Positions 2,947 to 64,000 of a stretch of 64,000 bases of DNA are shown one piece after another (within the stretch, counting starts at the first letter, position 1; every line of letters starts with the position of its first letter). The notes below the pieces were generated by a model, which saw nothing but the letters and a program-made list of their open reading frames with translations, ran no database searches and was not told the origin of the DNA. The translations under genes and the position numbers were made by a program. The stretch is from Candidatus Melainabacteria bacterium (GTDB taxonomy: Bacteria; Cyanobacteriota; Vampirovibrionia; 2-02-FULL-35-15), in the NCBI GenBank assembly GCA_023250155.1, contig JAHFBG010000010.1, positions 17,832 through 81,831 on the forward strand. The letters are read 5' to 3'.

Positions 2947-3029
2947 GGTTTAAATTAAAGCTTGCAAAGATTAACAAATGCTTAAATATATTACGGTTTG
3001 TTACAGGTATTATTTTCTGATAATATTCT

Positions 3030-3590: not shown

Positions 3591-3661
3591 GTATATGATT
3601 TTATACTAGAAATGCTAAACTTGTTGTTAATTGAAACAGCTTATAAAACCAGGAGAATCAC

Positions 3662-3943
3662 ATGCCATTGAAAGTCACAAGATTAAATACCTTTACTCTA
3701 AATGATATTGTAACGGCAAGAGATACATTAAGAAGTAAACTTATTTCTAGCACCATTCAAAAAGATGAACAAGAAGACTTGCAAGTCTTAGAAGGAATCT
3801 GTGGAAGAGGAGATCTTATTACCGTCAATGAATTAGCTAAACATAGTTTAATAATTAGAGGACTACTTCAGGAATCTTTAACACCACCTGAGAAAGATGA
3901 GTTTCAAGAAATATTTCACCAATGGTGTAAGTTCGGTAGATAG
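3662..3943 (+). CDS. Hypothetical protein
   Basis: 93-aa ORF in an intergenic slot; no motif recognised. Confidence 0.35.
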   Translation: MPLKVTRLNTFTLNDIVTARDTLRSKLISSTIQKDEQEDLQVLEGICGRGDLITVNELAKHSLIIRGLLQESLTPPEKDEFQEIFHQWCKFGR

Positions 3944-3945
3944 AT

Positions 3946-4713: not shown

Positions 4714-4909
4714 ATTTATCTCCTTATATTTATAGTGGAAACTTATTATAAGAGTTTTTTCATTTATTAATCAAGTCTTGACTGTCTTTGACTATAAGTT
4801 AAAACCTTAGATCATCCTTTTGAATATCCTAACGGATGATATATTTCAGCTATAAAAGTTAGAGAATTAAGTTGTGGCTTTAACTTTAATGACTAAATAA
4901 GGTGAAACA

Positions 4910-5398
4910 ATGACAAATGAAAGTTTAGTTAAAAATGAAACAAGTATCAAGGCATATTTTGAAGAAGATCATGACAGGCTGGATGAGTTATTTAAGAACT
5001 TTCAAAAATTTAAATTGTTAGACTACCCAAAAGCTAAAGAGTATTTTAAAGAGTTTAAGCATGGATTACAAAGGCATATTATTTGGGAGGAAGATATTTT
5101 ATTTCCTGTATTTGAAAAGAAATCAAATATCCCAAATGGCCCTACACATGTTATGAGAATGGAGCATAGACAAATAAAAGAATCTCTTGAAGCCATTCAT
5201 GATAAAGTCAAGAAACAAGATCCAAACAGTAATGACGATGAAGAAAAGCTTTTATCGATTTTAAAATCCCACAATATGAAGGAAGAAGGTATTTTATATC
5301 CAGCTATTGATAGTTTAATAGATGAAACAGAAAAGAAATCGATATTTCTTTCGATGAGAAATATTCCACAAGAACGTTTTGAAAAGTGTTGTGGATAG
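4910..5398 (+). CDS. Hemerythrin-like (HHE cation-binding) domain protein
   Basis: Four repeated H-x3-E / LFP-type helices (HDRLDELF, HIIWEEDILFPVFE, HRQIKESLEAIHD, EEGILYPAID). Confidence 0.55.
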   Translation: MTNESLVKNETSIKAYFEEDHDRLDELFKNFQKFKLLDYPKAKEYFKEFKHGLQRHIIWEEDILFPVFEKKSNIPNGPTHVMRMEHRQIKESLEAIHDKVKKQDPNSNDDEEKLLSILKSHNMKEEGILYPAIDSLIDETEKKSIFLSMRNIPQERFEKCCG

Positions 5399-25640: not shown

Positions 25641-25686
25641 TTTAAAAACTCCCGGGAGAGGACTTGAACCTCCGACCAATCGGTTA

Positions 25687-26193
25687 CTATCTGACTCCAA
25701 TTACTTGGAGAGTCGGACTTTCTCTTCACCTTCAACTTTACGTTAAGGTGGTAGGTGTAAAGTCTCTGCACTCGGATAATTATTTATCCTAGCTCAGGAT
25801 TGCCCGTTATCTCTCGATACTTGGGTTTCCCTGAATTAGCCTACTTTTTCACCGTAATATTACTACTACGGGCTGCTAACTTTGAATGTAACTCTCTATG
25901 GCAATTAGCACATAACATTATGCACTTATCAAGTTCTTCTTTCACTCTGTCCCAACCTCGTGTATATCCTTTACTAGAAATACTAAAGTCTTTTTGTTTT
26001 GGATCAAGGTGATGAAATTCAAGAGCCTCAGCACAGCGAAAATAACCACAAGATTCACATTTGCTACCTTTATATTCAATAGCATTAATTCGAATCTGTT
26101 TTCTTCTCTTTCTAACAGCATTGATTAAATACTGTTTTCTATCACTGTACTTTCTGGTTTCTTTTTTAACCATAGATTCTTAACATTTATTTT
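25687..26193 (-). mobile_element. Group-I-like self-splicing intron (~507 nt) in the tRNA-Asn anticodon loop, carrying an HNH endonuclease ORF
   Basis: 5' exon ends in U and the intron ends AGAUAG (omega-G). The segment after the ORF contains UCAGGGAAACCC (P4-like), CAGAGACUUUACACC (R-like) and AAAGUCCGACUC (S-like). GACUUU/AAAGUC can form P7. Confidence 0.6.
25841..26173 (-). CDS. HNH homing endonuclease (intron-encoded)
   Basis: CESCGY...LEFHHLDPK...CANCHRELH HNH motif. Same strand as the tRNA; starts 20 nt into the intron. Confidence 0.8.
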   Translation of the reverse strand: MVKKETRKYSDRKQYLINAVRKRRKQIRINAIEYKGSKCESCGYFRCAEALEFHHLDPKQKDFSISSKGYTRGWDRVKEELDKCIMLCANCHRELHSKLAARSSNITVKK

Positions 26194-26415
26194 ACAGCCG
26201 ATCGCTCTACCACTGAGCTACCCGGGAATATCAGAGTACAAATTAATTGATAATTAAAAATTGAGAATTGAAAATTAAAGAATTTACTAATCACCAATTT
26301 TTCAGTAACCTATACTAGCGCATTTTAAAACTGCTGTCATCTGATTGTTGAGCTTATGATGTTATAAGTCTAAGGATACAAAAATATCAATTATAATTAA
26401 CCATTAGTAAGACAT

Positions 26416-37144: not shown

Positions 37145-37474
37145 CTATTTGTCTAGTATTTTTTCTATTTGAGCTTTTAAAACCGGTAGATGTTTTGCCA
37201 GAACCATTTCTACAATACTTAGGTCAACTTTAAAGTATTCATGAACTATTACATGTCTCATACCAATAATATTCTGCCAGTTTATTTCACTATGTTGGGT
37301 TTTAAATTCTTCAGGAAGAGTTCTTGCAGCTTCTCCGATAATCTGCAAGCAGTGAACAATTCCATATACTTCAATATCATGACACTCATAAAATTTTCGT
37401 TTGTTTAGGTAGCTTTCAACATCATTAATTGTTTTTAAGATATCTTTTAATCTTTGTTGTACTATTTCATTCAT
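37145..37474 (-). CDS. HepT-like (DUF86) toxin of a HepT/MntA toxin-antitoxin pair
   Basis: GMRHVIVHEYFKVD Rx4HxY-type motif. 4-bp overlap with the upstream nucleotidyltransferase gene. Confidence 0.75.
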   Translation of the reverse strand: MNEIVQQRLKDILKTINDVESYLNKRKFYECHDIEVYGIVHCLQIIGEAARTLPEEFKTQHSEINWQNIIGMRHVIVHEYFKVDLSIVEMVLAKHLPVLKAQIEKILDK

Positions 37475-37761
37475 ATTTTAATGGCTTCATTAAGGGCATT
37501 TTCCCTAATTTTTTCTTTTAGTGTATTTGCAGTAAAAACCTCAATCTTTACTTTTAAAAGTTTGTTTAATTCTATCCATAACCCGCCTAAATCCCAGAGG
37601 CTTCTATCACCTCTTAAATCTACAAGAAAATCTATATCACTGTCTTCATTAGTTTGATTACGTGCAACAGAACCAAAAATCCTTACATTATAAGCCCCAT
37701 ATTGATCTGCAATCTTAAGTATTTCTTCTCGTTTGTGTTTTATTAATTCATATAGGCTCAT
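37471..37761 (-). CDS. MntA-like minimal nucleotidyltransferase (antitoxin)
   Basis: RIFGSVARNQTNEDSDIDFLVDL Pol-beta-type NTase motif. Confidence 0.8.
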   Translation of the reverse strand: MSLYELIKHKREEILKIADQYGAYNVRIFGSVARNQTNEDSDIDFLVDLRGDRSLWDLGGLWIELNKLLKVKIEVFTANTLKEKIRENALNEAIKI

Positions 37762-37795
37762 ATTTATTTCCTTCTATTTATTGTACACGATTTTC

Positions 37796-38974
37796 TTAAT
37801 CTAAGAAATACTTTTTTATCCCTATCTGCCAGGGGAATAATTTTACATGTTCAATTTTTTTTTGATAGGGATCATTTGAGAGGCATATGGCTTCGCACCT
37901 TCCAAAATCATTTGTAAGTTTAATAAATGAGAGTAAAGATTCTTTAGTGATTTGTTTGGAACTTTTAATCTCAATTAATAAAACTGACTTTCCAGGACGT
38001 TCTACAACCAAGTCTATCTCTGCACCATCCTTTGTCATCAAATAGCTAAACTTATACTCTGTCTTATAATATGTAGCTAATTTTATACACTCTAGTATTA
38101 TAAAGTGTTCGAATGCTTCGCCATACGCTGAAGTCCTTTCTACTAGTGGTACTGATAGTGTTCTATTTAATGCTTTTGTTATACCAGGATCAAAAAAATA
38201 AAATTTTGGTTTCGTACTTAATCTTTTTCTAAATGAGTGGTGAAAGCCTTCTAAAAAAAATCCTAATAGCGTATCTTCGAGAATTGTATAATATTTTTTT
38301 ATAGTTTTATCATCGACCCCTACGTCTCGTGAGATATTGGAAAAATTAATGACTTTAGCATTCATTTGTGCAGCAACTTCTAAAAAACGCCTAAATGGAT
38401 CTAAGTCTTGTACAAATTGCTCTGCCCATACTTCTTCTTTAAGGTAAGAATGAGCATATGCTTGTAAAAATTGAGTTTTGTATGTTTCACTCTTTAATGA
38501 ATGAATCTTAGGTAATAACCCCCATCTGAGAGCATCAGACAAGCTAAACTCTTTACCTAACTCTAATGCACTAAATGGGTGTAAATGATAAACAAAAGCT
38601 CGCCCTGCAAGCAAATTAGCAAAGCCACGCTTAAGCTTTCTGGCACTTGAACCTGTAAGAATAAACTTTTTGTCAGTAGATTCAATTAAAGAGTGAACAG
38701 GGTCCAAAAGTTTTGGAATCTTTTGAATTTCATCAATAACAACATGTTTAAATTTTTTAGGTAGAGCCTTAACGATTTCTATTAGCTCGCCTGGATTTCT
38801 TGAAAATCTATCCTCCTGTTCAGGAATCAGTAAATCTATCATAAAACTATTATTTTTAAATCTTTGAAGAATTAAGGTACTTTTTCCTGTTCCTCGTGGG
38901 CCAAATAAGAAAAAGCTATGATTAGATGGCAGACTTAAAAATCTATCTATGGATTGTTCAGATTCGGATACCAT
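37796..38974 (-). CDS. AAA-family ATPase with C-terminal DUF4143-like domain
   Basis: Walker A GPRGTGKST; Walker B VVIDEIQK. Confidence 0.8.
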   Translation of the reverse strand: MVSESEQSIDRFLSLPSNHSFFLFGPRGTGKSTLILQRFKNNSFMIDLLIPEQEDRFSRNPGELIEIVKALPKKFKHVVIDEIQKIPKLLDPVHSLIESTDKKFILTGSSARKLKRGFANLLAGRAFVYHLHPFSALELGKEFSLSDALRWGLLPKIHSLKSETYKTQFLQAYAHSYLKEEVWAEQFVQDLDPFRRFLEVAAQMNAKVINFSNISRDVGVDDKTIKKYYTILEDTLLGFFLEGFHHSFRKRLSTKPKFYFFDPGITKALNRTLSVPLVERTSAYGEAFEHFIILECIKLATYYKTEYKFSYLMTKDGAEIDLVVERPGKSVLLIEIKSSKQITKESLLSFIKLTNDFGRCEAICLSNDPYQKKIEHVKLFPWQIGIKKYFLD

Positions 38975-39172: not shown

Positions 39173-42100
39173 ATGAAAATAATACCTACATTTCTTAGAA
39201 ACTTTATCGCCAATGTTTGTACCACTAAACATAGACAACTAGTTAATAGTGGTGCAAAGCCTGAACACATAAGTGTCTATAATGAAGCCAAAGATGAATA
39301 CTATAAAAATAACTGGAAAGTAAAACAATTATTTGATTTAGATAAAGAGTTAATCATAGCCAATGTATCACCAGAACAATTAAAAGCTTGTAATGAAGTT
39401 ATGATTCAATTTCATAAGAATGAAGTTGATACAAGAAATCTAACTGATGTTTTAGTTAAAACACTTTTACTTAAAGCTACACCTGATCAAATTAAATTGC
39501 TTAGTCAAGGCTTGGTCGGTACTTCTAAAGAATATAAACAAGAGTATGATGCTGGAAGGGATATAGCAGGAGGAGATTATATAACGGTAGAACAATCTGT
39601 AATAAACAAAAACCAACTTATTTTTTTTAGCTTGGTTAGCGCTAATCCCAATACTGCTCAGTGTGAACTGCTGAAATATGTACATGATATAAAATCACAC
39701 AATGTCTGGTCTGGATTGGATTGGAAAGGGTTTGTTGAAGCATACATAAAGCTCTTAAATAAAAAACCTACTAATGAACAATTTCAAAGCTTTAAAGAAT
39801 TTATTAAGGTTTATATGGAGGATTCTAAGAAGCGCGAGCATTTAGTAGAACTAACAAATCATTTTACAGATTTAATCCCAAAATTATATCTAAAAAATGA
39901 TTGGGAATCCTATGGTAAAGCATTTTCAATTTATACAAACAATAAATGGTATTTAGATGATTTTATACATAATGTAGCTGATTTAGCAGGTAGAAAAAAC
40001 TTTGATAAACAGTTAGATGTATATATCAGTGCTTTAAAACAAATTCGATATTTAGCAATAGAGAAGAGTGGCGATGGTTTCCCAAGATATGAGCATGTAG
40101 TAAAAACTTTTAATGATATTTTTTTTCCTGAAATAGCAAACAAAGATCTCCCGAGCAAATACTGGGATTTATTGTCTACAGTATTAAAAAAAGAAGCCAA
40201 TGTTGAAAATAAAGTTTTTCGTACAGACTGGGATGTAATTGAGTTTACTAAATCATTTGTAGATCTTATAAAACTTAGTCTAAATAAAGAGCATCTTGAA
40301 AACTACCATGACATTATTTCTTTTATATATAAAAATTGTAAAAACATAAGTGAAACTACTCCTATTATTAAGTTTGTTTTAGCAAAACCGAGTAAAGAGC
40401 TAATAGAAATATATAAGAAAGCATTGTCTCTTTATACTGTCACTGATCTTCTTAGCTTTCCCGTTTCTCAAGATCGCCTAAAGACCTTATTAATAGGAGA
40501 GTTCAATAGATTAGCTAAAGCTAATCCTCCTAAAAAACTACTTGAAATACTTAACGATAACATGACTACTACTAAAAGTTTTATAGGCAAGCAAATTATA
40601 AAATGTGCTGCATTGGTCGAACCATTTAATACTTATGAAGCAAACAAAGATAAACTAACTAAGCTTAGTTCTGAGATGAAACAATATTTAGAAGATGAGT
40701 GGAAAGAAGAGCTTACTGATGTTAAAAAATTAGATGAACCTAACAAGGTAGATCCCCTACTGAATGAGGTTATTATAAAAAATTTATACCCTCTGTCATT
40801 AAGTGATAAAGAATGGGATTTGTATAATCAAGCTATCTTATATGATAAGGGCTCCACCTATTTAAATTTAAAAATAAGTTTAACTAGTGATTTTGTGCGC
40901 TTAATTAAATCAAAACCAACTCAAGAAGAATGGTTATTATATGAAGATGTTTTTTCTTATTATAAAACAAACAAACTTAAGTCAGATCGAACAATCTGGA
41001 ATCTAGCTTATTTATTTGAAGCTAAACCAGAAAAAGAAAAATTAGATAAATACAAAGAGTGGATAGTTTTATTTCAAGAGAAGGATTTAAGTTTAACTGA
41101 ACTAGTTAAACTTTGTGCACAACTTGCTAAGCCAGGTAATTTCAATAAGTATTTTAATGAGTGCAATAAAGAAATAAAACTTGCTTTAGAAGATGAGGCA
41201 TTAACTAAGGATTTGGATGTATTTTGCAGGTCACTAACTCAATTAATCGATAATGATTGTCTTCCTGAACATATTAAATTGTGGGTTGAAGTATTTGACT
41301 ATCACACTAAAAATCATTGGAGTGTACCAGGTGAAATGTTTGTTAGAGCCGTACAAGATAAGGTTCCGATGCAATTACTTAGAAATTATAGAAACTCATT
41401 AGTAAATGGAATCATAAAGTCACAAGAGGAATCAAAGAAACTTTTAACTGAGTTTCGATATCACTCTGCTATTTATAGAATTCTTAGACAAGAAGGAGAT
41501 ATTGATGCTGCAAGAACTCTTCTTCAAAATGAAGCAAAAAGCGATGAATTGCCAATTAATTTATATATGTCAAGTTCAAAGCATAAGATTCTTAATCCTG
41601 AAGCTATAAAAATACAAACTGAAACGGAAAGAGTTGTTAAAAGATCTTTTGATAAGAGCTATGGTTTCAGTGCACTGACTTTTGATTCTAAAAGATCACC
41701 TACGAAAGAACCTGCTCTATTAGCTCGTTTTGGTAATGATGTAGGAGATATAGAGTATATTAATGCTAAAGACATAAGTCTCTTTCCTGGTAAAGGCTTT
41801 ACAATTTCTGATTTTGATTTAAACAAGATTCTGGTTCCCGATGAAAACAATACAGAAGATCCACATCACCTTTATAAAGAAGCATGGCCATGGGCAAAAG
41901 ATGTATTTGATGACTTTCCAAAAACTGAGTTTGTTTTTACACGAGGATTTATGGCTGTACTAAACAAGGATAAAAAATATATCTTAAATGGAATACCTTA
42001 CAGTTATTTAGTAGTAAATAACCATCACCACAATAAAGGCTGTGATACTGCATATTTAGTACCTACAAAAATATTGGAAGAAAAACTTAAAGATACTAAA

Positions 42101-42937
42101 GTACCATATAAAGACATTATTGGATTTTCTAAAAACCATAAAGATATAAATGAAAATGGTTTAAAAATAGAAGATTTAATTGGGGCTTCAGATGATAATG
42201 CGCCCATATTAAATCTAGGATGGGGAACAAACTTTGGTGGTGGCCTATGTAATGCTTATCCACTAGATTCCAAACCTTATTTTGAATGGGAGAAAGAACT
42301 AAGACCTCAAATTCATCATACAAAAGACTTTTGGGAAAGGGTCCATAAGTCACATATTACTGGTACATATGAGACCAGTATGTCAAGAGATCCAAAATTC
42401 AAAGAACTATTAAAACCTTTACGGCAAGCACATGATGATGTTTATAAGATTACGGATAACTATCAAAATCTTTATGACTTATTTAGATTATATTTTTCTA
42501 TGTGGAAAAAAGGATTTACAGTAGGTGAAAAAGAAATTACAGAAGAAGATTTATTTCAAGAACTTGAACCACAAAACTTAGAGCAAGATGATAATGATTT
42601 TGTCTATAATCCAAACTCACTTAGGATGTTAAATGAAGCCTATAAATGGCATGAAGGAAGAAGCCTTGGAATAGAAGATAAAAATTATTATCCAGTTCTT
42701 GTTATAACTGATACCCTTGATTATTGGAGTCAACCTAAGTCACCAATTATGCTGGACACCTATGACATGATGCTTTATACAAATGGTAAAAAAATCCCAT
42801 TAAATCAAGAAGGAGTGGATGATATAGAAAAAGAAATATGGTATAAATTAGTGATGCCACAAGCCAAAGACTCTATAAAAGATCTAAGGTTTTATGATAG
42901 GAGAGATCTCGACTTATTAGGAGGAAATAATCAATGA
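39173..42937 (+). CDS. Large unclassified protein, paralog 1 of 3 (1254 aa): conserved N-terminal ~110 aa, helical-repeat array, conserved His/Cys-rich C-terminal ~480-aa domain
   Basis: Shares MKIIPTF..LV.AGA..EHI...SPEQLKACNEV N-terminus. C-terminal blocks YGFSALTFD.KR.PTKE, NNHHHNKGCDTAYLVPT, NLGWG.NF.GGLCNAYPLDSKPYF and HKSHITG are shared with the other two. Confidence 0.8.
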   Translation: MKIIPTFLRNFIANVCTTKHRQLVNSGAKPEHISVYNEAKDEYYKNNWKVKQLFDLDKELIIANVSPEQLKACNEVMIQFHKNEVDTRNLTDVLVKTLLLKATPDQIKLLSQGLVGTSKEYKQEYDAGRDIAGGDYITVEQSVINKNQLIFFSLVSANPNTAQCELLKYVHDIKSHNVWSGLDWKGFVEAYIKLLNKKPTNEQFQSFKEFIKVYMEDSKKREHLVELTNHFTDLIPKLYLKNDWESYGKAFSIYTNNKWYLDDFIHNVADLAGRKNFDKQLDVYISALKQIRYLAIEKSGDGFPRYEHVVKTFNDIFFPEIANKDLPSKYWDLLSTVLKKEANVENKVFRTDWDVIEFTKSFVDLIKLSLNKEHLENYHDIISFIYKNCKNISETTPIIKFVLAKPSKELIEIYKKALSLYTVTDLLSFPVSQDRLKTLLIGEFNRLAKANPPKKLLEILNDNMTTTKSFIGKQIIKCAALVEPFNTYEANKDKLTKLSSEMKQYLEDEWKEELTDVKKLDEPNKVDPLLNEVIIKNLYPLSLSDKEWDLYNQAILYDKGSTYLNLKISLTSDFVRLIKSKPTQEEWLLYEDVFSYYKTNKLKSDRTIWNLAYLFEAKPEKEKLDKYKEWIVLFQEKDLSLTELVKLCAQLAKPGNFNKYFNECNKEIKLALEDEALTKDLDVFCRSLTQLIDNDCLPEHIKLWVEVFDYHTKNHWSVPGEMFVRAVQDKVPMQLLRNYRNSLVNGIIKSQEESKKLLTEFRYHSAIYRILRQEGDIDAARTLLQNEAKSDELPINLYMSSSKHKILNPEAIKIQTETERVVKRSFDKSYGFSALTFDSKRSPTKEPALLARFGNDVGDIEYINAKDISLFPGKGFTISDFDLNKILVPDENNTEDPHHLYKEAWPWAKDVFDDFPKTEFVFTRGFMAVLNKDKKYILNGIPYSYLVVNNHHHNKGCDTAYLVPTKILEEKLKDTKVPYKDIIGFSKNHKDINENGLKIEDLIGASDDNAPILNLGWGTNFGGGLCNAYPLDSKPYFEWEKELRPQIHHTKDFWERVHKSHITGTYETSMSRDPKFKELLKPLRQAHDDVYKITDNYQNLYDLFRLYFSMWKKGFTVGEKEITEEDLFQELEPQNLEQDDNDFVYNPNSLRMLNEAYKWHEGRSLGIEDKNYYPVLVITDTLDYWSQPKSPIMLDTYDMMLYTNGKKIPLNQEGVDDIEKEIWYKLVMPQAKDSIKDLRFYDRRDLDLLGGNNQ

Positions 42938-43167
42938 TGACTATTAGAACAGTAAGAAGTGTATTTGCAGCACCAGCGGCACCACCACAAGCTCCACCAA
43001 AACAACCAGACACAAAGCCTGATACACAACCAGCTCCATCAAAACCTGCTCCAGCACCACCAAAACCACAGCCAGTAAAACAGCCTACACCTACACCGAT
43101 TAAAGAACCTTGTCCAAAGCCCAATGGAGAACCTATTCCTGGAATTTGTCCGATCAATGATCCGTAA
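42934..43167 (+). CDS. Small proline-rich protein (77 aa), translationally coupled to paralog 1 (ATGATGA overlap), C-terminal GEPIPGICPI motif
   Basis: Start overlaps the upstream stop. Composition PAPSKPAPAPPKPQP. C-terminus is conserved with ORF 51132..51374. Confidence 0.6.
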   Translation: MMTIRTVRSVFAAPAAPPQAPPKQPDTKPDTQPAPSKPAPAPPKPQPVKQPTPTPIKEPCPKPNGEPIPGICPINDP

Positions 43168-43225: not shown

Positions 43226-46200
43226 ATGAAAATTATCCCAACATTCTTTAGGAAGTTTGTTGCTTCTTTGCCATTTACTAAAACAAGAAGTTTAGTAAAA
43301 GCAGGTGCTACCTATGAACATATAAAAGTATTTAATGAAATCTATAATCAATTTTATAAAAACAATTGGAATGCTAAAAAATTAGTTGAGGATGAAAAGA
43401 GTTTTATAGCATTAAATGTATCACCTGAACAGCTAAAAGCCTGCAATGAAGTTCTTATTCACTTTCACAAGGAAAAAATATTGACAACACACTTAGTAGA
43501 TATATTAACTGAAATGCTTTCATTAAAAGCCACACCAGAACAAATATCTTTAGCAAAAAAATACTTGACCATTGGTTCAAAAAAAAGTCTTTATATTAGT
43601 CCTGGAATCATTCCAAAAGAACAAAAAAGTTTTTTTAATTTGATAAAAGAAGGTCCATCAAAAGAGTATTGTGCATTGTTTGAATCTATACCATTAAACA
43701 ATCGTAGAACAGTTGCTTCTAATTTTAGTAGAGTATCAACTGAACTATTAAAAGAAAATTTGAGCACTGATCAATTAAAGCTATATAAGGATACAGTTGA
43801 TTATCATTTTGAAAACAAGTTTAGCGTTTACGAGTTAATGTGTTTGCTTAATAAGCTGATTAAAGAAAATAAACCACCTGAACAATGGAATGCTTGTGCT
43901 AAAGCCCTTAATATCTATAAAGAAAATAAGTGGGAAATAGATGAGTCTACTTTTATGTTGGTTGATATTTTAAAGAATCATAATGTTAATAATAAAGCGA
44001 ATTTATATATTTTAGGGATCTCTAGGTGTAAAGAACAAAAACTAGATCATGATCAGGCAGCCTTTACAAACAGTTTTAAAGAACTACTAAAAATATATCC
44101 TTCAAAAGATGATTTAGATCTATTTGAACAAGGACTACAAAACTGTTCAAATCCTATAGAGTGGACTAATTACTTTACGTATCTTTTAAAATTAAGCCCA
44201 AAAGAAAATAAATATAATGTTTATAAAAAATATTGCTCACTTCTTTTAAAAGATGGAGAAGATATTCAAGATGTAACAAGAGTATTTACAAAGTTAATCA
44301 TGAAAGGACAACCATCAAAAGAAATAGAATCCTGTTTTCAAATATACTTCAATTTAACATCTCATATAAAAACCAATTACAATAATACATTCAATGTAAA
44401 TAGTGTCATTGACATAGTTTTAGCCAATCCAGATAAAGAACTAATAGAACTATATAAAGAGACTTTGTCAGTCTATTCAAAAGCAAAAACTAAAACACCA
44501 CTTAATCCACTTGCTAAAGAGTTTTTAGAATATATAAAATCAGATCCAGAACCTATACAACAAGAGCTCTATAAACAAGGACTAGAAGCACATAAAGACA
44601 ATTATGTCTTAATGGAAAAATTTATATCTATGAGTATCGCTTTAACTAAGGCACATAAAGACTATGAACTATACAAAGACAAACTAAAATATCTTGCACC
44701 TGAAATAAAAAAAGACTTAGAAGATGAATGGATCTATGCATTTACGGATACTCATATGCTAGCTAAATATAAAGATATATCGATATCTTACTATCCACCA
44801 TTAAATAATCAAATCGTCAGATTAAGTTATAAAGATTTTAGAGAAAATAAAGATATATGGGACATCTACAATGAGCTTGCTTTAAGTCAAAGGAAAAAAA
44901 ATCTGTCTCTAGTAGACTTTACAAGAGACTTTGCTGCATTAACTCTTCTAGAACCAAGCAAAGAATATTGGGACTTATATAAAAAAGCTATTTCTTATCA
45001 CATAGAACATGATTTTCCTCTTACAGATCTAACTGGACATCTAGCGTCATTAGCATATGCAAAATCATATAGTAAGAATTTAAAGATCTATGATGAAGCC
45101 ATAAACTATTTTAAAGATCGCAAGCTTCCACTGGATAAATTAATTAGTAGTTTTGTTACATTGGCAAAATACAATGTTCAATATGACTTTTTAAAAGAAT
45201 TTTATAAGATACAAGCATACTTTCAAGAAAACAATATCGATGCTAATGACTTTAACAAACAAGCTGCTCTCTGGGCTAAAGACAATATAAGTGGAGAACA
45301 TTTAAAAATCTTCAAGGAATTATATGTAGGTTATCTAAATAAAAAATGGGACCTGAATGAGCTAAAAACAGATTTAATACTTTCTATAGAAGAAGAGTAT
45401 CCAATACAACTTTTAAGAAATATTAGAAATGAAATTCAAAATGGAAGTATTAAATCGGCAGAAGAAGCAGAACATCTGTTTCAAGACATCAGATTTCATA
45501 CAGCAATTTACAAAATACTTAGACAAGAAATAAGCAAAGATGAAGCTAAAAAGATTTTATCCATTTTTGGAGGGGCACAAGCAGACTCTCTACCTGTTCA
45601 TATATATTCAAATTCTACTAGGCACGAATTTAATCCAGAAGCAATAAAAATACAGAATGAAACTGAAAGAGTTTTTACAAGACTTTTTGATTTAAATTAT
45701 GGTTTTAGTTCTTTAACAGTAGACTGTAAAAGAACACCTACTAAAGAATCTGCTTTATTAGCTAATTTCGGCAATGATGTGGCAAATGTCAACTATATTA
45801 ATGCCAAAGATATAAGTCTTTTTCCAGGACGTGGTTTTGAGATTTCTAGTTTTGATTTAAATAAAATTTTAATTCCAGATAAAACAAATCCAACAGACCT
45901 ATACCATCTTTATAAAGAGTCGTGGCCCTGGGCTAAAGAAACACTAGATAATTTTTCGAAAACCAAGTTTATATTTACTCGTGGTTTTGTAGTTATAACT
46001 AATCCTGATAAAAAATATATATTAAATGGAACTCATTATAGTTATTTTGTAGTAAACAATCATCATCACAACAAAGGCTGTGACACTGCATATCTTGTGC
46101 CTACTGAAATACTAGAAAAAAAATTAAAAGGAACTACAATTCCATTTATGGATTATGTTGGAGTTTCAAAAAACCACAAAGATATCAATGAAGCGGGCTT

Positions 46201-47008
46201 ACAACTTGATGATTTAGTAAAAGATGCTAATGAAAAGGGATTACAAGTGCTAAATCTTGGATGGGGATCTAACTTTAGCGGTGGCTTATGCAATGCTTAT
46301 CCACTTGATTCAAAGCCTTATTTTAAATGGGAGAAAAAATTACGTGGTAAGCATACAAAAGATTTTTGGGGAAGAGTTCATAAGTCTCACATCACAGGCT
46401 CTTGGCAATCTAGAATGTTTGACGATCCAAAGCTCAAGAAATTGTTAGCCCCTTTAAGAAAAGCACATGATGAAATCTATACACTAACAAATGATTATCA
46501 AAATCATTTTGACTTGTTTAGATTGTTTTTTTCTATGTGGAAAAAAGGATTGACTGTGGGAGAAAGAGTATTAGAACCTACTAGTGATGACTTGTTCCAA
46601 GAACTTGAACCCCAGAATTTAGAACCTGGACAGTTTGATAAAAGTGCTTTTGATAATGAAATAACCAATAGAGAAGCGATTTTAGAATACTCAGAAAATC
46701 CAAACTCCCTTAGAATGCTGGTTGAAGCATACAAATGGCATGAAGCTAAAAAACAAGGGATTAGTGGTCCTAATTTTTTCCCTATCTTAGTAGTAACGAA
46801 TACACTAGACTACTGGAGTCAACCAGAATCAAAGATTATGCTTGATACTTACGATATGACTATTCATGCTGATGGTAAAACTATTCCTTTAAATGAAGAA
46901 GAGTTGACTTTTATAGAAAAAGGATTGTGGAATAAGAGCTTCTTACCTTATATGCTTGACTCTACAAAAGATTTAAGGTTTTATGACAGAAGAGATTTGA
47001 ATATGTAG
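43226..47008 (+). CDS. Large unclassified protein, paralog 2 of 3 (1260 aa); no coupled small ORF
   Basis: Same N- and C-terminal conserved blocks as paralogs 1 and 3; divergent middle. Confidence 0.8.
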   Translation: MKIIPTFFRKFVASLPFTKTRSLVKAGATYEHIKVFNEIYNQFYKNNWNAKKLVEDEKSFIALNVSPEQLKACNEVLIHFHKEKILTTHLVDILTEMLSLKATPEQISLAKKYLTIGSKKSLYISPGIIPKEQKSFFNLIKEGPSKEYCALFESIPLNNRRTVASNFSRVSTELLKENLSTDQLKLYKDTVDYHFENKFSVYELMCLLNKLIKENKPPEQWNACAKALNIYKENKWEIDESTFMLVDILKNHNVNNKANLYILGISRCKEQKLDHDQAAFTNSFKELLKIYPSKDDLDLFEQGLQNCSNPIEWTNYFTYLLKLSPKENKYNVYKKYCSLLLKDGEDIQDVTRVFTKLIMKGQPSKEIESCFQIYFNLTSHIKTNYNNTFNVNSVIDIVLANPDKELIELYKETLSVYSKAKTKTPLNPLAKEFLEYIKSDPEPIQQELYKQGLEAHKDNYVLMEKFISMSIALTKAHKDYELYKDKLKYLAPEIKKDLEDEWIYAFTDTHMLAKYKDISISYYPPLNNQIVRLSYKDFRENKDIWDIYNELALSQRKKNLSLVDFTRDFAALTLLEPSKEYWDLYKKAISYHIEHDFPLTDLTGHLASLAYAKSYSKNLKIYDEAINYFKDRKLPLDKLISSFVTLAKYNVQYDFLKEFYKIQAYFQENNIDANDFNKQAALWAKDNISGEHLKIFKELYVGYLNKKWDLNELKTDLILSIEEEYPIQLLRNIRNEIQNGSIKSAEEAEHLFQDIRFHTAIYKILRQEISKDEAKKILSIFGGAQADSLPVHIYSNSTRHEFNPEAIKIQNETERVFTRLFDLNYGFSSLTVDCKRTPTKESALLANFGNDVANVNYINAKDISLFPGRGFEISSFDLNKILIPDKTNPTDLYHLYKESWPWAKETLDNFSKTKFIFTRGFVVITNPDKKYILNGTHYSYFVVNNHHHNKGCDTAYLVPTEILEKKLKGTTIPFMDYVGVSKNHKDINEAGLQLDDLVKDANEKGLQVLNLGWGSNFSGGLCNAYPLDSKPYFKWEKKLRGKHTKDFWGRVHKSHITGSWQSRMFDDPKLKKLLAPLRKAHDEIYTLTNDYQNHFDLFRLFFSMWKKGLTVGERVLEPTSDDLFQELEPQNLEPGQFDKSAFDNEITNREAILEYSENPNSLRMLVEAYKWHEAKKQGISGPNFFPILVVTNTLDYWSQPESKIMLDTYDMTIHADGKTIPLNEEELTFIEKGLWNKSFLPYMLDSTKDLRFYDRRDLNM

Positions 47009-47169: not shown

Positions 47170-50100
47170 ATGGACATATTTGAATCTAAGCTTTTTACCC
47201 CTATTGCCTACCTTTTAGGATGGGCTCCATACCATAAAAGAACAAAGGATTTGGTTAAGGCTGGTGCCACTCCTGAACATCTACAAATCTATAATGAGTG
47301 TTTCCCAAAACTAAAATATAAGCACATAAATTATTATGACTCCTATAAATATAGAAAAGGGCAATGGGAGGACTTTAAGTTTCCAGAAACTTTTATAAGC
47401 TTAATCACTGCCAAGGTCTCACCAGAAACTATACAAACTTTTAGCAACATACTGGTAAAACTTTTTAACAACAGTAACAACAGTCAGGTTAATCCTGCTT
47501 TACTTGACCTAACACTTAAAGGTACAAAACCAGAGTACTTATCATTGTATGATAGGAATTTTGATCATTTAAATTACCATGAGGAGTCATTTGTACAGTT
47601 TATACAATTAAACCCTACAACTGAACAGTTTAATTTATACGAAAAATTAATTAATATAGATGATTATGAACTCCGTCAATCTATTATAAAAGAATTTCCT
47701 GAGCTTCTAAAATTAAAACCCGACAAAAGCACATGGGATCAGCTTTCTAAACTCTTGGAGGAAAATATAAAGCTTGCAAATTATAAAAAGGCTTATGATT
47801 TGCTTCATAGCTATGTTCAATTAACCAATATACAAACTTCAGAAAACGAGGCTGATAAAGATCTCTTTATAAAAGCCAACTCCTACTATGAAGAAAAAGG
47901 ACTTGTTAAAGATGAGACACTTAATGATTTTGTACAATTACTAAAGAATAATGTAAAAAACCCTTTTCTAGATGATTATAATAATCTCTACAATGCCTGT
48001 AACAATAAGAAAATCAATCGAGATCTGTTTCTTAAAGCACATATATTAATAGCAAGCTTATCTCCATCTGAAACACAGTACTCACTTTACAAGAAACAGC
48101 TTCAATCTGAATATGAGCTAAATAATATTTCCTGGTTTTCTCAAGCATATGCAGAACTTATAAAAGCTAATCCTACAGATGAACAGTTTGAAATATATCG
48201 TGATGTTTCTAATAAATTCATTCAAGATAATTTACCATTACATCGTTTAATTAAAACTTTTGTTTCTTTACTAAATGAAAAAGTACCGAATGAAATTATA
48301 GCCTCAAAGCTTGAGACATATTATAAGTTGCTCTCCTTTATAAAAGAATCACTATTCAAAACAATTCCTTCAAAAGACGATTGGGGTGATAGACAAAGCC
48401 GAGAATCTATCTTCAAGTATGGGGATTCTGCCTATGGAAATATTAGTGAGTTAACAAACTTAATTAAGCTTAATCTCTCAGATGAGCCGTTAGAAGCATA
48501 TAAAAAACTAATTTCATCACATACATTTCAAAGTGTCGATCCATTAACAAAGAATTTTATTGATTTATTAAAAACCAATCCATCAAATGAATATTTAACC
48601 ATTTATAGTAAGGCCATTTCACTTTATCCATCATCATATAATACTGAGCAGTTTTCTAAACATCTTATAGCATTGATAAATGCAAAACCATCAAATGAAC
48701 AGCTTTTAATGTATATTCTAGCTTTAGAATCATATAGAGATTTATATGATAAAGAAAAGGCAAAATCCCAAAGCCACTATACATCTATAGTTACACTTGA
48801 TGAAATTGATAAGCTAACACTAAAGCATGCTGAAACAATAAAAGCATTAAATAGTTACCCGGCTTTAAAACCATTTTTAGACAAATTAAACCCAAAAATA
48901 AAAAATCAAATTGAGCACATAGTAATAGGTAGCAAAAGTGATAACAATGATAACTGTGCAGATGTTATTAATGCATTGAAAAGCTTTATAGATACTAATC
49001 CTACTAATGAACAATGGGATTCATATAATAAGATTACTGGTTATCATCTAGAAAAAGGCTTACCAATTGTTCCGTTAACAAATTCATTTGCAGAGTTTAT
49101 TTCCAATAACCCAAGCAAGGAAAACAGGGATTTATATAATACTCTTATTGCCTACCACATGGAACATGGATTTGCTTTAGATACACTATCTCAAAGCTTA
49201 GTAAACATCTTTAAAACTCAATCTAATAAAGAACAGTTAGCAACAGTTATTCGAACCATTGAAGAAATTAAGAACAAAGAGCGACAGCTTAGTAGTTTTC
49301 TACAGTTCGTTTCAACATCAAATATATTAAACTCTTCCGACAAACTTCTTAGTGGAGTTATTGATGTAATTACTTACTTCCCTGAAGAAATTGTAAAAAA
49401 ATATGATTTGTTTGCTGAGTTACAAACCCTTATAAAAGAAGGGTGCTCTAACGAACACATTAAACTCTATAAAGAACTCTTGGATTTTTGTATAAAAAAC
49501 AAACAAGACTTTACTGGTTATTACTGCAATCATAAAAATCTTATACATGAATTTGTAAAAGAAAAATATCCAATACAACCATTAATCAATTTTAAAAATA
49601 GTTTACTCGATGGGCAGATCAAATCTCAAGAAGATATAACAAAATATCTTACTGAGATAACACATCATTCTGTAATTTATAAGATACTTAGATCAAATGG
49701 TGATAATAAAGCTTTAAAAACAAAACTAATGAACAGTGCACAAACAGATGAATTGCCTGTACCTATTTATTCTGACTCTAACCGTAGTTCTTATAATCCT
49801 GAAGCTATAAAAATGCAACAAGAAACAGAAAAAACACTTGTAAGACTTCTTGATGTTAATTATGGTTTTAGTGCTTTAACTTTTGACTGTAAGCGCCCTC
49901 CGTCAAAAGAACCACCTCTTCTAACTCGCTTTGGAAATGATGTTGGGAAGATAGAGTACATTAATGCTAAGGATATAAATGCTTTTCCAGGAAAAGGATT
50001 CTCAATATCAAAATTTAATCTAAATAAAGTATTTGTAGCTGATAAAACAAACTCAACCGATCCTTTTCATACTTATAAAAAAGCTTGGGACTGGTCAAAA

Positions 50101-58210: not shown

Positions 58211-60436
58211 ATGTCAAACACTATCTCCAAAACTAGAATAAATGCTCCCCTTCCAAGCAATGGATTAGATAAAAAAAATGAAACATTGTTAAATACACCC
58301 TCCAAGCAAACTTTATCAAACAATACTACCTGTAAAAAAAACAAAGAAAAACCTCAACGCTTTTTAAATCAAAAAAATATATTAGAAAGGTTTATTAAAG
58401 AAATTGAAGATGCAATAAAAGAAGGTAACTATAATTTAGCAATTGATTTATACACTCTAATCAAACCTTCCATACAGCAAAAAGCAACTAATAAACCTAA
58501 GATTAACAATACACAGCCTGACAAACCTCTATCTAATAGACTTCTTGATGCATATGAGCAAATTATAAATCCTAAAATAGAAAATTCGGAATCATTTACA
58601 CTAGCCTATTTAAACCTGCTTGTTGAATTGGCTATTTTCTTTAAGATGTATGGAGCACACTTCCCAAAACCTTTATATTTTGAAGGTCTTAGTGAGCAAA
58701 TTTTTCAAAAGCATCAACATAAAACTCCTAATATACTTGCTCCACGAGAAGACCTAGGTATCTGGAATAGAATTAAATACTATTTTAGAAAAACTGAGTC
58801 CTTGTTTTTTAAACCCCAACAAACTATTCTTGAAAATCTTGCTTTCAAATTAGCTGGTATTGGAATGCTTATATCATCTCCAATAAATCTAATGATTATT
58901 GAGCAAAGAATTGCGATAAATAAATTCGTAAAACAAACATATAACTTAAAGTACAGAGTAGCAGAAATAATCAATTCTTTTCATGAAAGGAATGGCTTAG
59001 TAATTGATAATAGGATTAAAAGCTTGTTTCATAGAGAGGATAAAAAGAACATTGAGATTGCAATTCTAAAAGAACCTAGTAACTTTACAAGCCTCATCTT
59101 ATTAACCAAGTTATTAAAACATGGTTTTCAAATTCCTATTATTGTACAGGAAGAAGAGGTAGTTAAGAATGGTAACAATATAGTGAACATAGCAATAAAT
59201 GGAACAATTGAGAGTGAAGATGAATTAACACTATTAAAAGCAGGTTCTTCAAGAACCAATGCTAACTTTATTTTACCGTTAACAGATTCTATAAAGTTTA
59301 TAGAACAAGGAGGAAATAAAATCGCTACTGTGTCTTCTGGATTAATGTTCAAAGAAGACAAGCCCGTATTTGTAAAATTTAACACCCCATTACCACTGCA
59401 TTATATAGTTAATTATGCTGATGACAACCTGGATAAAAGAATCAAAGAATATGGTATTCCTACTGCTCAGGCTACATTAGCAGAAGAATATATCAATGAA
59501 AAAGATATAAGTACTACTATTCTTGCTAGGAATGGAATTAATGTTCCTAAAACTATTTCTATTATTGGACATAATAGTGATCACCATTTTATTAACAAAC
59601 ACCGAACCAATAGTTCTAATTGTTATTTTGTAAATATTAATGAGCCTGAAAAATCAAGAGAAACAGTAAAGCAAATTATTGACAATTTTATAACTTCAAA
59701 CAATCTCAATACTCCATTTCAATTAATCGTTGTCAAACCAAATAATTTAAGTGGAGGAAGAGGCGTTGAATTTTTTTATTGGCCTGATATCCGTTTCATG
59801 ACAAGTTCTACAATAAGATTGTTAGAGTCAGGGAATAATGTAGTTATTCAAGAGCGTATTCTGCCACCATTAATGGCGCAAAAAAATAATTCAGAAGATT
59901 CTAGTACTGAAAAGAGAGTTCAATATGATTGGAATTTACGTGTATTTGTTTCAAATATCCCTGGAAAAGGACCTGTTGTAAGTGATATATTAGTAAGAAT
60001 TGCTAAATATGGTACCCCTGTGAATATTTGTCAGGGTGCACAATGTGACTTATTAGAATCCATTGCACTAGAAAGTAATATTTCTAATGATATGTTAATT
60101 CACTTACAAAATGACATTGCTGATATTTCAAAACGAGCTTATCTGGCAATTAAAGAATCTATGATCAAAGACAAAAACATTAAACCTAATGAAGATATAT
60201 CTGATTTTATGGGAATAGATATAATAGTCAAACAAGAGCAAGATAAATTAGTTCCTTATATAATTGAATTAAATGATTTTCATTCTGGTGGTATGTGGGA
60301 CTTTGATAATTATATTGATAGTATGGATGAAGCTGTATATAGAGAGAGAAAAGGGAAGCCTTGCAAAGACTGGATAGAAACTATGCTTACCAAAGCACAA
60401 CAATATAAGTCTACAATCCTTCAACAATCTTCATAA
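58211..60436 (+). CDS. ATP-grasp protein with tubulin-tyrosine-ligase-like (TTL-like) C-terminal domain
   Basis: LIVVKPNNLSGGRGVEFF, VVIQERILPP...WNLRVFVSN and FMGIDIIVKQ...YIIELNDFHSG match the TTL-family order of ATP-grasp motifs. Confidence 0.55.
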   Translation: MSNTISKTRINAPLPSNGLDKKNETLLNTPSKQTLSNNTTCKKNKEKPQRFLNQKNILERFIKEIEDAIKEGNYNLAIDLYTLIKPSIQQKATNKPKINNTQPDKPLSNRLLDAYEQIINPKIENSESFTLAYLNLLVELAIFFKMYGAHFPKPLYFEGLSEQIFQKHQHKTPNILAPREDLGIWNRIKYYFRKTESLFFKPQQTILENLAFKLAGIGMLISSPINLMIIEQRIAINKFVKQTYNLKYRVAEIINSFHERNGLVIDNRIKSLFHREDKKNIEIAILKEPSNFTSLILLTKLLKHGFQIPIIVQEEEVVKNGNNIVNIAINGTIESEDELTLLKAGSSRTNANFILPLTDSIKFIEQGGNKIATVSSGLMFKEDKPVFVKFNTPLPLHYIVNYADDNLDKRIKEYGIPTAQATLAEEYINEKDISTTILARNGINVPKTISIIGHNSDHHFINKHRTNSSNCYFVNINEPEKSRETVKQIIDNFITSNNLNTPFQLIVVKPNNLSGGRGVEFFYWPDIRFMTSSTIRLLESGNNVVIQERILPPLMAQKNNSEDSSTEKRVQYDWNLRVFVSNIPGKGPVVSDILVRIAKYGTPVNICQGAQCDLLESIALESNISNDMLIHLQNDIADISKRAYLAIKESMIKDKNIKPNEDISDFMGIDIIVKQEQDKLVPYIIELNDFHSGGMWDFDNYIDSMDEAVYRERKGKPCKDWIETMLTKAQQYKSTILQQSS

Positions 60437-60479: not shown

Positions 60480-61811
<1,332 letters not shown>

Positions 61812-61816
61812 AATAT

Positions 61817-64000
61817 TTAAGGCTTAAACACACAAATCCCATTGTTGCAATCATGTTGAACTGGTGGGCAATCAGCATTGGTTATACAATTTATATTCCA
61901 GCACTTACCCTGAAAACAAATTTGATCTTTTCTACAATCAATACTTCTTAAACAAACTAATGGTAGTTTAATACACTTATTATTTATTCCACACTTTTCA
62001 TTGTTATTGCAGTCATTGTCTAATTGACAAGTCTTTGCAGGTTCACATATACCTTTTTGAGAATTGCATTGCCTATCTCCACACTGAATGTTACTTGTAC
62101 ATTTTGTAAGACATTGACCATTTTCACAAGCCTGATTTATGCCACATACTATATTTGAACAAGTAATAGGAATTACAGCACAATCTCCTCGTGAGCCTTC
62201 ACATGGACTCGTGCAACGACCACCATTACAAACACTTCCTCTATTACAATCAGTATTGTTATTGCAAGTTTGAGTCCCAGTTCTTGGAATACAGATGCCC
62301 TTTTGAGTATCACAGTCCTCATCTAAGTTATCACAATCCTCATTTCTCTGACAAACCTCTGGCATGGGTTTTAAAACACAAATACCTCTTTGTGAATCAC
62401 AGCTTTGTCCCATTGTGGAATCGCAATCATCATCTCTGTCACATGTTTTAGGTTTTACACAAGTTTTTGTACTGTCATCACAGACTTCCCCTTTTGGTTT
62501 ATCACAATCATCATCTCTCTTACAAACTTTTGGTATACCTGGTTTTACTACACACTTTCCGTTCTTACATACTCCAATGCTTCCACACTCACTATTCTTT
62601 TTACAAAACTTTGGTACACAAATTTTGGTTGGATAATCCTCAGGACAGTTATCTTCAGCTGTCTTTGTACAAACTGATCCTCTTGGTGATTCTATACATA
62701 AACCACTTGCACACTCAGAATTATCTGTGCACTCCTTACAGTCAGGGTTCTTGGCATAAGTACACACTCCAGTTACAGCATCACATGTATCATTCGTACA
62801 AGAATTTCCATCATCACAAGACTTCTCAGTACCCGTACATTTGCCACTGGTACATCGATCATTAGCTGTGCAAGAATTTCCATCATCACAGCTCTCTCCA
62901 TTTATACAGCCTGATGAGCTTTGTATATTTTTACATATTCCTTTAAACAAACTACACTGACAAGTAATTGGATTAAAATAAGTCCCTGCTGGACATTTTA
63001 CTGATGGACACTCACACATGCATGTACTACTATTGAATACTTTTGGTGGATCACATATGCCGTCACAATCAGCGTCTCTTGTACCACTACCACTACTTGA
63101 ACTTGTACTACTTCCTATACTTCCAAAGACGCCAGAGAATGTTCCACCTGAACTACTACTAGTGCTACTGCTATTACTTCCTGAACTATCACATGTACAA
63201 GTAACCGTGTTGAGAATAGTTCCTACCGGACATACTAGTCCACAGTTATCATTGCTACTTCCTGAACTGCCACTTAAACTTCCAGCTACACCAGAAAATG
63301 TCCCACCTGAGCTGGCATTACCACTTGAGCTAATGCTCCCAGGGACACCTGAAAATGTCTGATTTAAGGTATTGCTAAAAACACATTTTTCTCCTGAAAT
63401 ACAATCACTGTCAGTATTGCATAAACCGTCTTCACAAATACAATTATTTCCTTGGCATCTAAGCTTTTCACAAACCCTATTTAACGGACATAAACACTCT
63501 CCATCATTATTGCAACTGCATTGAGGATCGCTTGAACACATTCCTTCTCTACAAATAGCATTTGGTTTGCAAAAACATCCTTTATAAGTACAAATACACG
63601 GATGATTAGAATCCCCAAGAAGCGCTATGCCCACTCTATTCAAACAAATGTTTGTAACCGTTGGGAGAATTCTTTGATCTAATTTGCCATCTTTAAAAAT
63701 CAAGTTAGAGTTTGCACATAATATTTGCTCTGAACACGAAGCAATAAAATCACTTAATTTATTTTGTATTTTATCTAATCGTTTTTTAGCTTGTTGTTGC
63801 TTCAATTCACTCTTATCAATCTTATTTAAATCTGGTATTTTTGATGAAGCTTCTTCTTCTGTTATGTTTAAACGCCCTATGTTCTTTAAAGAGTTTCTTT
63901 CATCCTCGCTAAGATAGACACTAAGCGGCCCCATATTACCGCTACTACTAGATGCGTTTTGATTTAGTCTTACAATTGCTTCTTGTAATCCTGCTTCTGC
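61817..64000 (-). CDS. Secreted cysteine-rich repeat protein (EGF-like / CxxDDDCD and CDDGNSCT modules, Ser-rich linkers); frame stays open upstream of the ATG at 63934 to the window end, so the 5' end may lie outside the window
   Basis: Over 100 Cys in regular spacings. The frame upstream of 63934 has no stop before the window edge. Confidence 0.6.
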   Translation of the reverse strand, partial: AEAGLQEAIVRLNQNASSSSGNMGPLSVYLSEDERNSLKNIGRLNITEEEASSKIPDLNKIDKSELKQQQAKKRLDKIQNKLSDFIASCSEQILCANSNLIFKDGKLDQRILPTVTNICLNRVGIALLGDSNHPCICTYKGCFCKPNAICREGMCSSDPQCSCNNDGECLCPLNRVCEKLRCQGNNCICEDGLCNTDSDCISGEKCVFSNTLNQTFSGVPGSISSSGNASSGGTFSGVAGSLSGSSGSSNDNCGLVCPVGTILNTVTCTCDSSGSNSSSTSSSSGGTFSGVFGSIGSSTSSSSGSGTRDADCDGICDPPKVFNSSTCMCECPSVKCPAGTYFNPITCQCSLFKGICKNIQSSSGCINGESCDDGNSCTANDRCTSGKCTGTEKSCDDGNSCTNDTCDAVTGVCTYAKNPDCKECTDNSECASGLCIESPRGSVCTKTAEDNCPEDYPTKICVPKFCKKNSECGSIGVCKNGKCVVKPGIPKVCKRDDDCDKPKGEVCDDSTKTCVKPKTCDRDDDCDSTMGQSCDSQRGICVLKPMPEVCQRNEDCDNLDEDCDTQKGICIPRTGTQTCNNNTDCNRGSVCNGGRCTSPCEGSRGDCAVIPITCSNIVCGINQACENGQCLTKCTSNIQCGDRQCNSQKGICEPAKTCQLDNDCNNNEKCGINNKCIKLPLVCLRSIDCRKDQICFQGKCWNINCITNADCPPVQHDCNNGICVFKP

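Follow-up and report, generated by a model that had tools for sequence, protein, structure and literature searches.

A previously undescribed C-terminal domain on large, predicted helical-repeat proteins of Melainabacteria, encoded with a small proline-rich partner

Results

Three tandem paralogs share a conserved C-terminus

We analysed a stretch of 64,000 nucleotides from a Candidatus Melainabacteria bacterium (NCBI GenBank assembly GCA_023250155.1, contig JAHFBG010000010.1, positions 17,832 to 81,831 of the forward strand), referred to here as the window. It has a GC content of ~32% and carries three very large open reading frames (ORFs), all on the plus strand, which a three-way alignment identified as tandem paralogs with a conserved C-terminal domain. 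The window is a metagenome contig (ENA ERZ27280021). Coordinates are collected in Table 1, and residue numbers throughout are those of paralog 1.

Pairwise identity among the paralogs was 58-64% over residues 721-1254 versus 23-33% over residues 1-720, with a sharp break near residue 720. An earlier note on this DNA had described a conserved C-terminus beside variable N-termini, and the alignment bore this out. Its placement of the domain at 41400-42937 was correct as to the C-terminal location, but the conserved part begins slightly upstream, near residue 721 (nucleotide 41333). Three sequence blocks that the same note had reported from all three paralogs were likewise found in each of them and in identical order; they contain the longest (17 residues), second longest (11 residues) and joint third longest (8 residues) runs that are identical in all three proteins. 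The closest relative of the large genes (60% identity) lies in the groundwater Melainabacteria metagenome-assembled genome (MAG) JAHFBD01. The upstream N-carbamoylputrescine amidase and agmatine deiminase genes of the window are 83% and 69% identical, respectively, to a syntenic stretch of the same MAG.

The C-terminal domain constitutes an undescribed family

The three large proteins had no family match in Pfam, NCBIfam, PADLOC or PHROGs, and no score rose above the gathering threshold of any Pfam-A or NCBIfam family. Searches with 43 full-length relatives again gave no Pfam match (E<=0.01), nor did any weak family recur among them at E<=10. PADLOC also returned nothing for the two small proteins encoded within the cluster, its only match being PDC-S01 for a neighbouring AAA_14/DUF4143 protein. 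Sequence and profile searches of the PDB found nothing in the C-terminal domain; the sole matches were marginal ones to designed helical repeats and fell in the N-terminal part. Literature searches found no description of the protein family. The ~530-residue C-terminal domain is thus a previously undescribed protein family.

An AlphaFold2 (AF2) model of residues 721-1254, built from a 14-sequence alignment, formed a single unit with a mean predicted local distance difference test score (pLDDT) of 82 and a predicted template modelling score (pTM) of 0.87. Besides a helical lead-in it has two beta-rich parts and a long helix, and one acidic linker is disordered. Structure prediction, one of the checks that the earlier note had proposed, therefore gave a confident model but no structural relative, since Foldseek returned no match in the PDB (best E 1.4) or BFVD (best E 0.6).

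A word-indexed search of 5.8 billion proteins recovered 11 relatives, and a profile search run in full against 1.84 billion cluster representatives recovered 330 clusters. The domain occupies the C-terminus in every case, the proteins being 600-1400 residues long. GTDB genomes with the family belong to Melainabacteria, Bdellovibrionota, Oligoflexia and Planctomycetota (mostly Pirellula), together with one gammaproteobacterial MAG; they often carry 2-4 copies each. Bdellovibrionota MAGs also encode a second, shorter and divergent member of ~670 residues, in which N1027 is replaced by Ala and K1059 by His. No relatives were detected in viral contigs, and a phage origin was rejected on that ground.

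A family-wide core of polar and glycine residues

Residue conservation was counted in 129 full-domain homologs, each representing one 50%-identity cluster, aligned to the family hidden Markov model. The near-invariant set consists of P872, G873 and G875 in the F-P-G-K-G loop, which is the most conserved motif of the family, together with R924, G925, Y943, N949, H951, P964, G1114, D1195 and W1223. Its polar members are N949 (126/129, 98%), D1195 (97%), R924 (96%), H951 (119/129, 92%) and Y943 (88%). The F-P-G-x-G form of the loop, D1195 and H951 were retained in every genome locus, and the conserved core was intact in 30 independent genome and metagenome loci.

The invariant His/Cys/Asp clusters noted earlier in these blocks held up for H951, but not for the cysteines or for H952, H953 and H1061. 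Within the HHH run of block 1, position 952 is Phe in 85/129 homologs and position 953 is His in 44/129. In block 3, H1058 (108/129) and K1059 (97/129) are better kept than H1061 (49/129), and the block as a whole is variable in Planctomycetota loci. The cysteines of GCDTAY and GGLCNAY had been thought invariant; C957 is Cys in 16/129 homologs (12%) and otherwise N, S, G, A, L or a gap, while C1026 is Cys in 65/129 (50%) and otherwise S, V, A, E or L. No Cys column is conserved across the 129 homologs. The neighbours of C1026 in block 2 fared better, namely S1019 (100/129), G1023 (110/129) and N1027 (104/129). The proposal that the two G.C(D/N).AY blocks arose by internal duplication also failed: aligning sub-profiles of the 129 sequences with hhalign gave a probability <1%, and in the model the blocks differ in secondary structure, block 1 being a beta-hairpin followed by a helix and block 2 a loop with short helices.

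In one subgroup (P0120, P0138, P0148 and P0153) D950, H951, S1019, H1058, K1059 and D1198 are lost together, as is N1027 in three of the four, and in another (P0111, P0113 and P0139) H951Q occurs together with N954H. Because of these joint losses and the paired exchange, the conserved positions of the three blocks probably line one functional site and would then cluster in three dimensions. Judged from the alignment, such a site is probably built from His, Asp, Asn, Arg and sometimes Lys, rather than being of a Cys-His type. The Planctomycetota clade has replaced N1027, H1058 and K1059, and often S1019 too; replacement of N1027 is seen in the Pirellula clade.

Several known active-site signatures were compared with these motifs and rejected. 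A Ser-His-Asp triad with S1019 as nucleophile was discarded on finding Ala at this position in several Planctomycetota loci that keep the remaining core and the partner gene described below; because Planctomycetota often replace S1019, it is ruled out as a universal nucleophile. The remaining candidates were set aside by reading the conserved motifs against the known signatures. The phospholipase D HKD motif requires HxK, and the family has adjacent H-K; the protein-kinase catalytic loop has a D-to-N spacing of 5, and here it is 4 with no nearby DFG. The R-S-E ADP-ribosyltransferase, GT-A DxD, HEPN Rx4-6H and HExxH metalloprotease motifs were dismissed in the same manner.

At the place of the acidic linker (42524-42598 in paralog 1), homologs carry large acidic, Trp-containing insertions. 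P0007-P0010 have a longer linker of 60-100 residues in which acidic-Trp motifs recur (..DPDWWKKD.., ..DDSFWRSEE..DDSWWRGEE..DDNFWRGDE..); these resemble short linear interaction motifs.

A small proline-rich gene is coupled to the large gene

Paralogs 1 and 3 are each followed directly by a small gene, whose start ATG overlaps the stop of the large gene as ATGA, as read from the sequence. Each small gene is preceded by a GGAGG Shine-Dalgarno sequence, and because this lies within the final codons of the large gene the large proteins carry 'GG' in their tails. Both small proteins end in ...GEP[IL]PGICPI... Paralog 2 has no GG tail and no small ORF directly after it, and two large paralogs can share one small gene.

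A like ORF of 55-90 residues, mostly with 25-34% proline, lies directly downstream of the large gene in ~24/27 genome loci and on three metagenome contigs. It is present across all five lineages and is also called by public gene callers. Pfam searches of the small ORFs gave low-complexity similarity only. Alignment of 19 of them revealed an invariant Cys near the C-terminus and a central motif, PxPV[RK][QV]PxPxP[ILV]; the Cys stands mostly in PGxCP in Melainabacteria and Bdellovibrionota and in LQP[FY]CP in Planctomycetota. An all-against-all comparison of the ORFs from 30 loci found no other gene common across phyla, and the conserved unit is therefore a two-gene cassette of large gene and small ORF.

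The N-terminal arm is a predicted loose helical repeat

AF2 modelled residues 1-720 entirely as helical hairpins, at low confidence (pLDDT 62, pTM 0.43). The underlying repeat of ~36-37 residues, F..LI...P[ST].E[QE]W.LY......H, is loose; each protein has 2-6 loosely matching units, spaced by 36-37 residues where adjacent, and there is no regular array. A signal-peptide-like N-terminus is missing in 126/129 members and a transmembrane segment in nearly all. The N-terminal regions are mostly acidic, with a median isoelectric point (pI) of 6.0.

A Foldseek search of the PDB with this low-confidence model ranked 9ld1_A first (E 2e-3), followed by BurrH (4cj9_A, E 6.5e-3), dHax3 (E 0.16) and then MTERF1. 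The matches to arrays of transcription activator-like effectors (TALEs) had TM-scores of ~0.16, and designed helical repeats scored alike. The resemblance of the modelled arm to TALEs is accordingly to be taken as a lead only.

Neighbouring genes and other features of the window

The cluster is flanked on the minus strand (37145-38974 and 51986-53054) by a HepT/MNT toxin-antitoxin pair, a MazF/PemK-like pair recognised by sequence inspection, the AAA_14/DUF4143 ATPase, which matches the PADLOC candidate system PDC-S01 (E 2e-60), and a Nudix-like match to PDC-S07. Since HepT/MNT, PDC-S01, PDC-S07 and MazF/PemK are all absent from the syntenic loci of relatives (L001 and L030), these flanks look like local insertions outside the system. 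A defence-island context was rejected, the flanking toxin-antitoxin genes and the PDC-S01 gene being present only in this window and not in relatives.

Elsewhere in the window, an intron-split tRNA gene occupies 25655-26226 on the minus strand, with its 5' half tcccgggtagctcagtggtagagcgatcggct at ~26226-26195 and its 3' half ..ccgattggtcggaggttcaagtcctctcccgggag following the intron. The intron has a group I core (25929-25694; Rfam RF00028, 79.6 bits), and a 110-residue HNH-type ORF at 26173-25841 carries ..CESCGYF..EFHHLDP..CANCHRELH. It encodes a class I tRNA, possibly Asn-GUU, whose variable loop is short; ARAGORN found no tRNA. A 2074-residue protein (7460-13684, minus strand) contains eight Vgb_lyase-type beta-propeller stretches (E 9e-265) and an N-terminal LamG/concanavalin-like domain. 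Two large Cys-rich and Ser/Gly/Thr-rich proteins with repeated C..C motifs and no Pfam domain are encoded at 53566-54942 (plus strand) and 61817-63934 (minus strand), the former with a signal-like N-terminus. A 741-residue ORF without a Pfam match (58211-60436, plus strand) lies just upstream of an argininosuccinate synthase-like gene (60489-61811).

Table 1. Coordinates of the large paralogs, their conserved motifs and the small partner genes.
Feature	Position	Strand	Remarks
Paralog 1	39173..42937	+	1254 aa; N-terminal all-alpha repeat region aa 1-720 and conserved C-terminal domain (ORF list, paralog alignment, AF2)
Paralog 1, conserved C-terminal domain	aa 721-1254, nt 41333-42934	+	Paralog alignment, AF2 model
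F-P-G-K-G loop	aa 871-875, 41783..41797	+	P872 129/129, G873 128/129, G875 128/129
FTRGF beta-hairpin turn with R924	41936..41950	+	R924 124/129; between model strands 198-203 and 206-211
Block 1, NNHHHNKGCDTAYLVPT	aa 949-965, 42017..42067	+	Holds N949, D/N950, H951, N954; C957 not conserved
Block 2, LNLGWGTNFGGGLCNAYPLDS	aa 1013-1033, 42209..42271	+	In all three paralogs LNLGWG.NF.GGLCNAYPLDS; S/T1019, G1023, N1027 better conserved, C1026 in half
Block 3, VHKSHITG	aa 1057-1064, 42341..42364	+	H1058 and K1059 conserved in some clades only
Acidic disordered linker inside the domain	aa 1118-1142, 42524..42598	+	Variable length; pLDDT 26-34, model residues 398-422
IMLDTYDM with D1195 and D1198	42746..42769	+	D1195 125/129, T1196 106/129, D1198 85/129
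GGAGG Shine-Dalgarno of small ORF 1	42920..42924	+	Within last codons of paralog 1; 9 nt, then ATG at 42934
Small partner gene 1	42934..43167	+	77 aa, 32% Pro, ends ...GEPIPGICPINDP; gene call in public contig
Paralog 2	43226..47008	+	1260 aa; conserved domain from nt 45350 (ORF list, paralog alignment)
Paralog 3	47170..51135	+	1321 aa; conserved domain from nt 49519 (ORF list, paralog alignment)
GGAGG Shine-Dalgarno of small ORF 2	51118..51122	+	9 nt, then ATG at 51132
Small partner gene 2	51132..51374	+	80 aa, 29% Pro, ends ...GEPLPGICPIIR
Second Bdellovibrionota member, locus L007	~3083-5104	-	Opposite strand, few kb from main copy
Second Bdellovibrionota member, locus L008	~1633-3645	-	Opposite strand, few kb from main copy
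Second Bdellovibrionota member, locus L023	9434-11449		Opposite strand, few kb from main copy

Discussion

A candidate effector domain with a putative small regulator

We tentatively explain the cassette as a two-gene unit in which a new enzyme-like effector domain is carried on a variable helical-repeat arm and paired with a small binder or regulator, a reading we regard as a serious possibility rather than a firm assignment. The C-terminal domain would be the enzyme-like effector and the fast-diverging N-terminal hairpin repeats its recognition arm, and the large protein would work with the translationally coupled, intrinsically disordered proline-rich protein of 55-90 residues and its one invariant Cys. 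The family-wide core consists of the F-P-G-x-G loop with R924, Y943, N949, (D/E950), H951, D1195 and (D1198), to which the Melainabacteria/Bdellovibrionota clade adds S/T1019, N1027, H1058 and K1059. From this pattern an enzymatic activity of the domain is plausible. The enzymatic payload beside variable N-termini that the earlier note had suggested is likewise plausible in view of the near-invariant polar residues. A metal-dependent or phosphate/nucleotide-directed chemistry would fit better than a covalent thiol or serine mechanism, because the conserved residues are His, Asp, Asn and Arg with a glycine loop and there is no universal Ser or Cys nucleophile.

The most likely binding target of the partner is the conserved C-terminal domain, since the motifs of the partner are conserved across phyla and the N-terminal arms are not. 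The partner might act there as an inhibitor, an immunity factor or a chaperone that restrains the enzyme in the producer, and its Pro-flanked Cys could either cap a metal, in the manner of a cysteine switch, or be a modified site. A conserved and probably catalytic module, a diverging repeat arm, tandem and dispersed paralogs and a coupled small partner together suggest the signature of a conflict or effector system.

Comparison with described systems

The arrangement recalls polymorphic toxin/immunity pairs such as Rhs, contact-dependent inhibition (CDI), LXG and Tox-REHH with RehhI, in that a small gene comes directly after that of a large multidomain protein, genomes hold several paralogs and one half of the protein diverges fast. 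The polarity is reversed, however: here it is the N-terminal part that varies and the C-terminal part that is conserved. In contrast to such toxins, the 43 full-length members have no PAAR, RHS, LXG, type V secretion system (T5SS) or other trafficking domain by Pfam, and signal peptides are lacking as described above. The partner, a candidate immunity protein by the position of its gene, is a disordered protein with 25-34% proline and not a folded domain. Membership in Tox-REHH was rejected, as size and residue spacing differ.

AvrRxo1-Arc1 is an effector or toxin with its chaperone or antitoxin, a small protein encoded downstream. It shares with our cassette the two-gene operon in which a small partner is translated right after a large enzyme, but the proteins studied here have no P-loop or zeta-toxin kinase motifs and no homology to that system was found. 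Metzincin zymogens hold a cysteine-switch prodomain, PRCGxPD. By analogy only, His and Asp residues of the enzyme could bind a metal that the single Cys in P-G-x-C-P would cap; unlike in metzincins, this Cys is on a separate polypeptide, and the large protein has no HExxH or other metalloprotease motif. We could not match the cassette, with its disordered ~30%-proline partner carrying a single Cys, to any described toxin-immunity, effector-chaperone or RiPP (ribosomally synthesized and post-translationally modified peptide) system.

Alternative explanations

The conserved domain may not be an enzyme at all; as a module for structure or assembly it might instead dock the proline-rich partner or some other conserved component of the cell, with the variable helical repeats providing the functional surfaces. 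The top-conserved positions are mostly G, P, F, W or L, and neither a recognisable catalytic signature nor a known enzyme fold nor a universal Ser or Cys nucleophile is present, which speaks for such a module. It is harder to reconcile with four to five polar residues (R, N, H, D and Y) that are 88-98% conserved over five lineages at 25-45% overall identity, and with the joint loss of further polar residues in a divergent subgroup, which is typical of an active site decaying as a unit. We consider this alternative unlikely, if worth keeping in view. Somewhat less likely again is an enzyme-substrate pair, in which the C-terminal domain modifies the invariant Cys of the partner and PxPV[RK]QPxPxP serves as a leader-like recognition element, as in RiPP or protein-modifier systems. 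In favour of this, the small ORF has a conserved internal motif ahead of a likewise conserved Cys 'core' at its C-terminus, it is strictly co-located and translationally coupled with the large gene, and the only invariant Cys is in the partner and none in the large protein. Against it, the precursor would be encoded after the enzyme and not before it, conserved genes for a protease, a transporter or other maturation steps are missing from the neighbourhood, the hypervariable repeat arm of 400-900 residues would have no obvious role, and one small gene can serve two large paralogs.

The shape of block 1 raises the question of a DNA-directed enzyme. In the model it runs by DSSP from a strand (941-948) through an N-D-H-x-x-N loop and a second strand (960-964) to a helix (965-972). 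Much as in HNH and other His-Me finger nucleases, this predicted strand-loop-strand-helix has Asp-His at the end of its first strand and an Asn four residues after the Asp, so that D950-H951 and, in the loop, N954 could belong to a cryptic beta-beta-alpha core. There is a precedent in Tox-REHH, an orphan toxin fold with conserved His and Arg residues in which an HNH site was hidden (bioRxiv 10.64898/2026.09.22.753552). The N-terminal repeats of ~36 residues would then form a TALE-like DNA-tracking array; they share with AvrBs3/dHax3 and BurrH tandem two-helix hairpins of ~35-37 residues, and TALE arrays headed the Foldseek matches of the arm. Yet the 43 members have no HNH or endonuclease Pfam match at E<=10, no conserved N, H or D metal ligand occurs in helix 965-973 (T965 74%, E966 31%), and the residue spacing differs from that of Rehh. 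The arm fares no better: the model is weak, its E-values are marginal and its TM-scores low, with designed repeats similar; the repeats are degenerate, irregular and few, the regions are acidic, and no repeat-variable diresidue pattern or sequence homology to TALEs was found. The P-[ST]-x-E motif, moreover, begins the long helix and not the short one. This alternative is therefore improbable in our view. A bolder version of it is more doubtful still, namely that these are natural modular DNA-targeting enzymes, in which a fast-evolving TALE-like array guides a DNA-modifying domain of new fold, be it a cryptic His-Me finger-type nuclease or another; the producer would keep it inactive through the disordered partner, whose single Cys would cap the catalytic metal as a cysteine switch in trans. 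Least probable by far is the Cys-His hydrolase or Cys/His metal site of the earlier note, in which the Cys of GCDTAY, that of GGLCNAY or both would serve as nucleophile or ligand. Both cysteines are identical in the three paralogs of the window and adjoin His-rich sequence, half of the family keeps C1026, and H951 is indeed the nearly invariant His that such a site would need. C957, C1026, H952, H953 and H1061 are so poorly conserved, however, that in the homolog alignment, the check which that note had itself put forward, such a site is not a family property. Papain-like, transglutaminase-like and other thiol hydrolases likewise gave no match in Pfam, NCBIfam or PDB sequence searches, and none by Foldseek in the PDB at E<1.

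Implications

Should the domain turn out to be merely structural, the finding would amount to a new domain of unknown function (DUF) only. If it is an enzyme, as our tentative effector reading has it, it would represent a new catalytic fold kept by five or more bacterial lineages, among them the Melainabacteria and the predatory Bdellovibrionota. Solving its chemistry would then annotate hundreds of hypothetical giant proteins, and may reveal a new way in which an enzyme is regulated by a disordered peptide.

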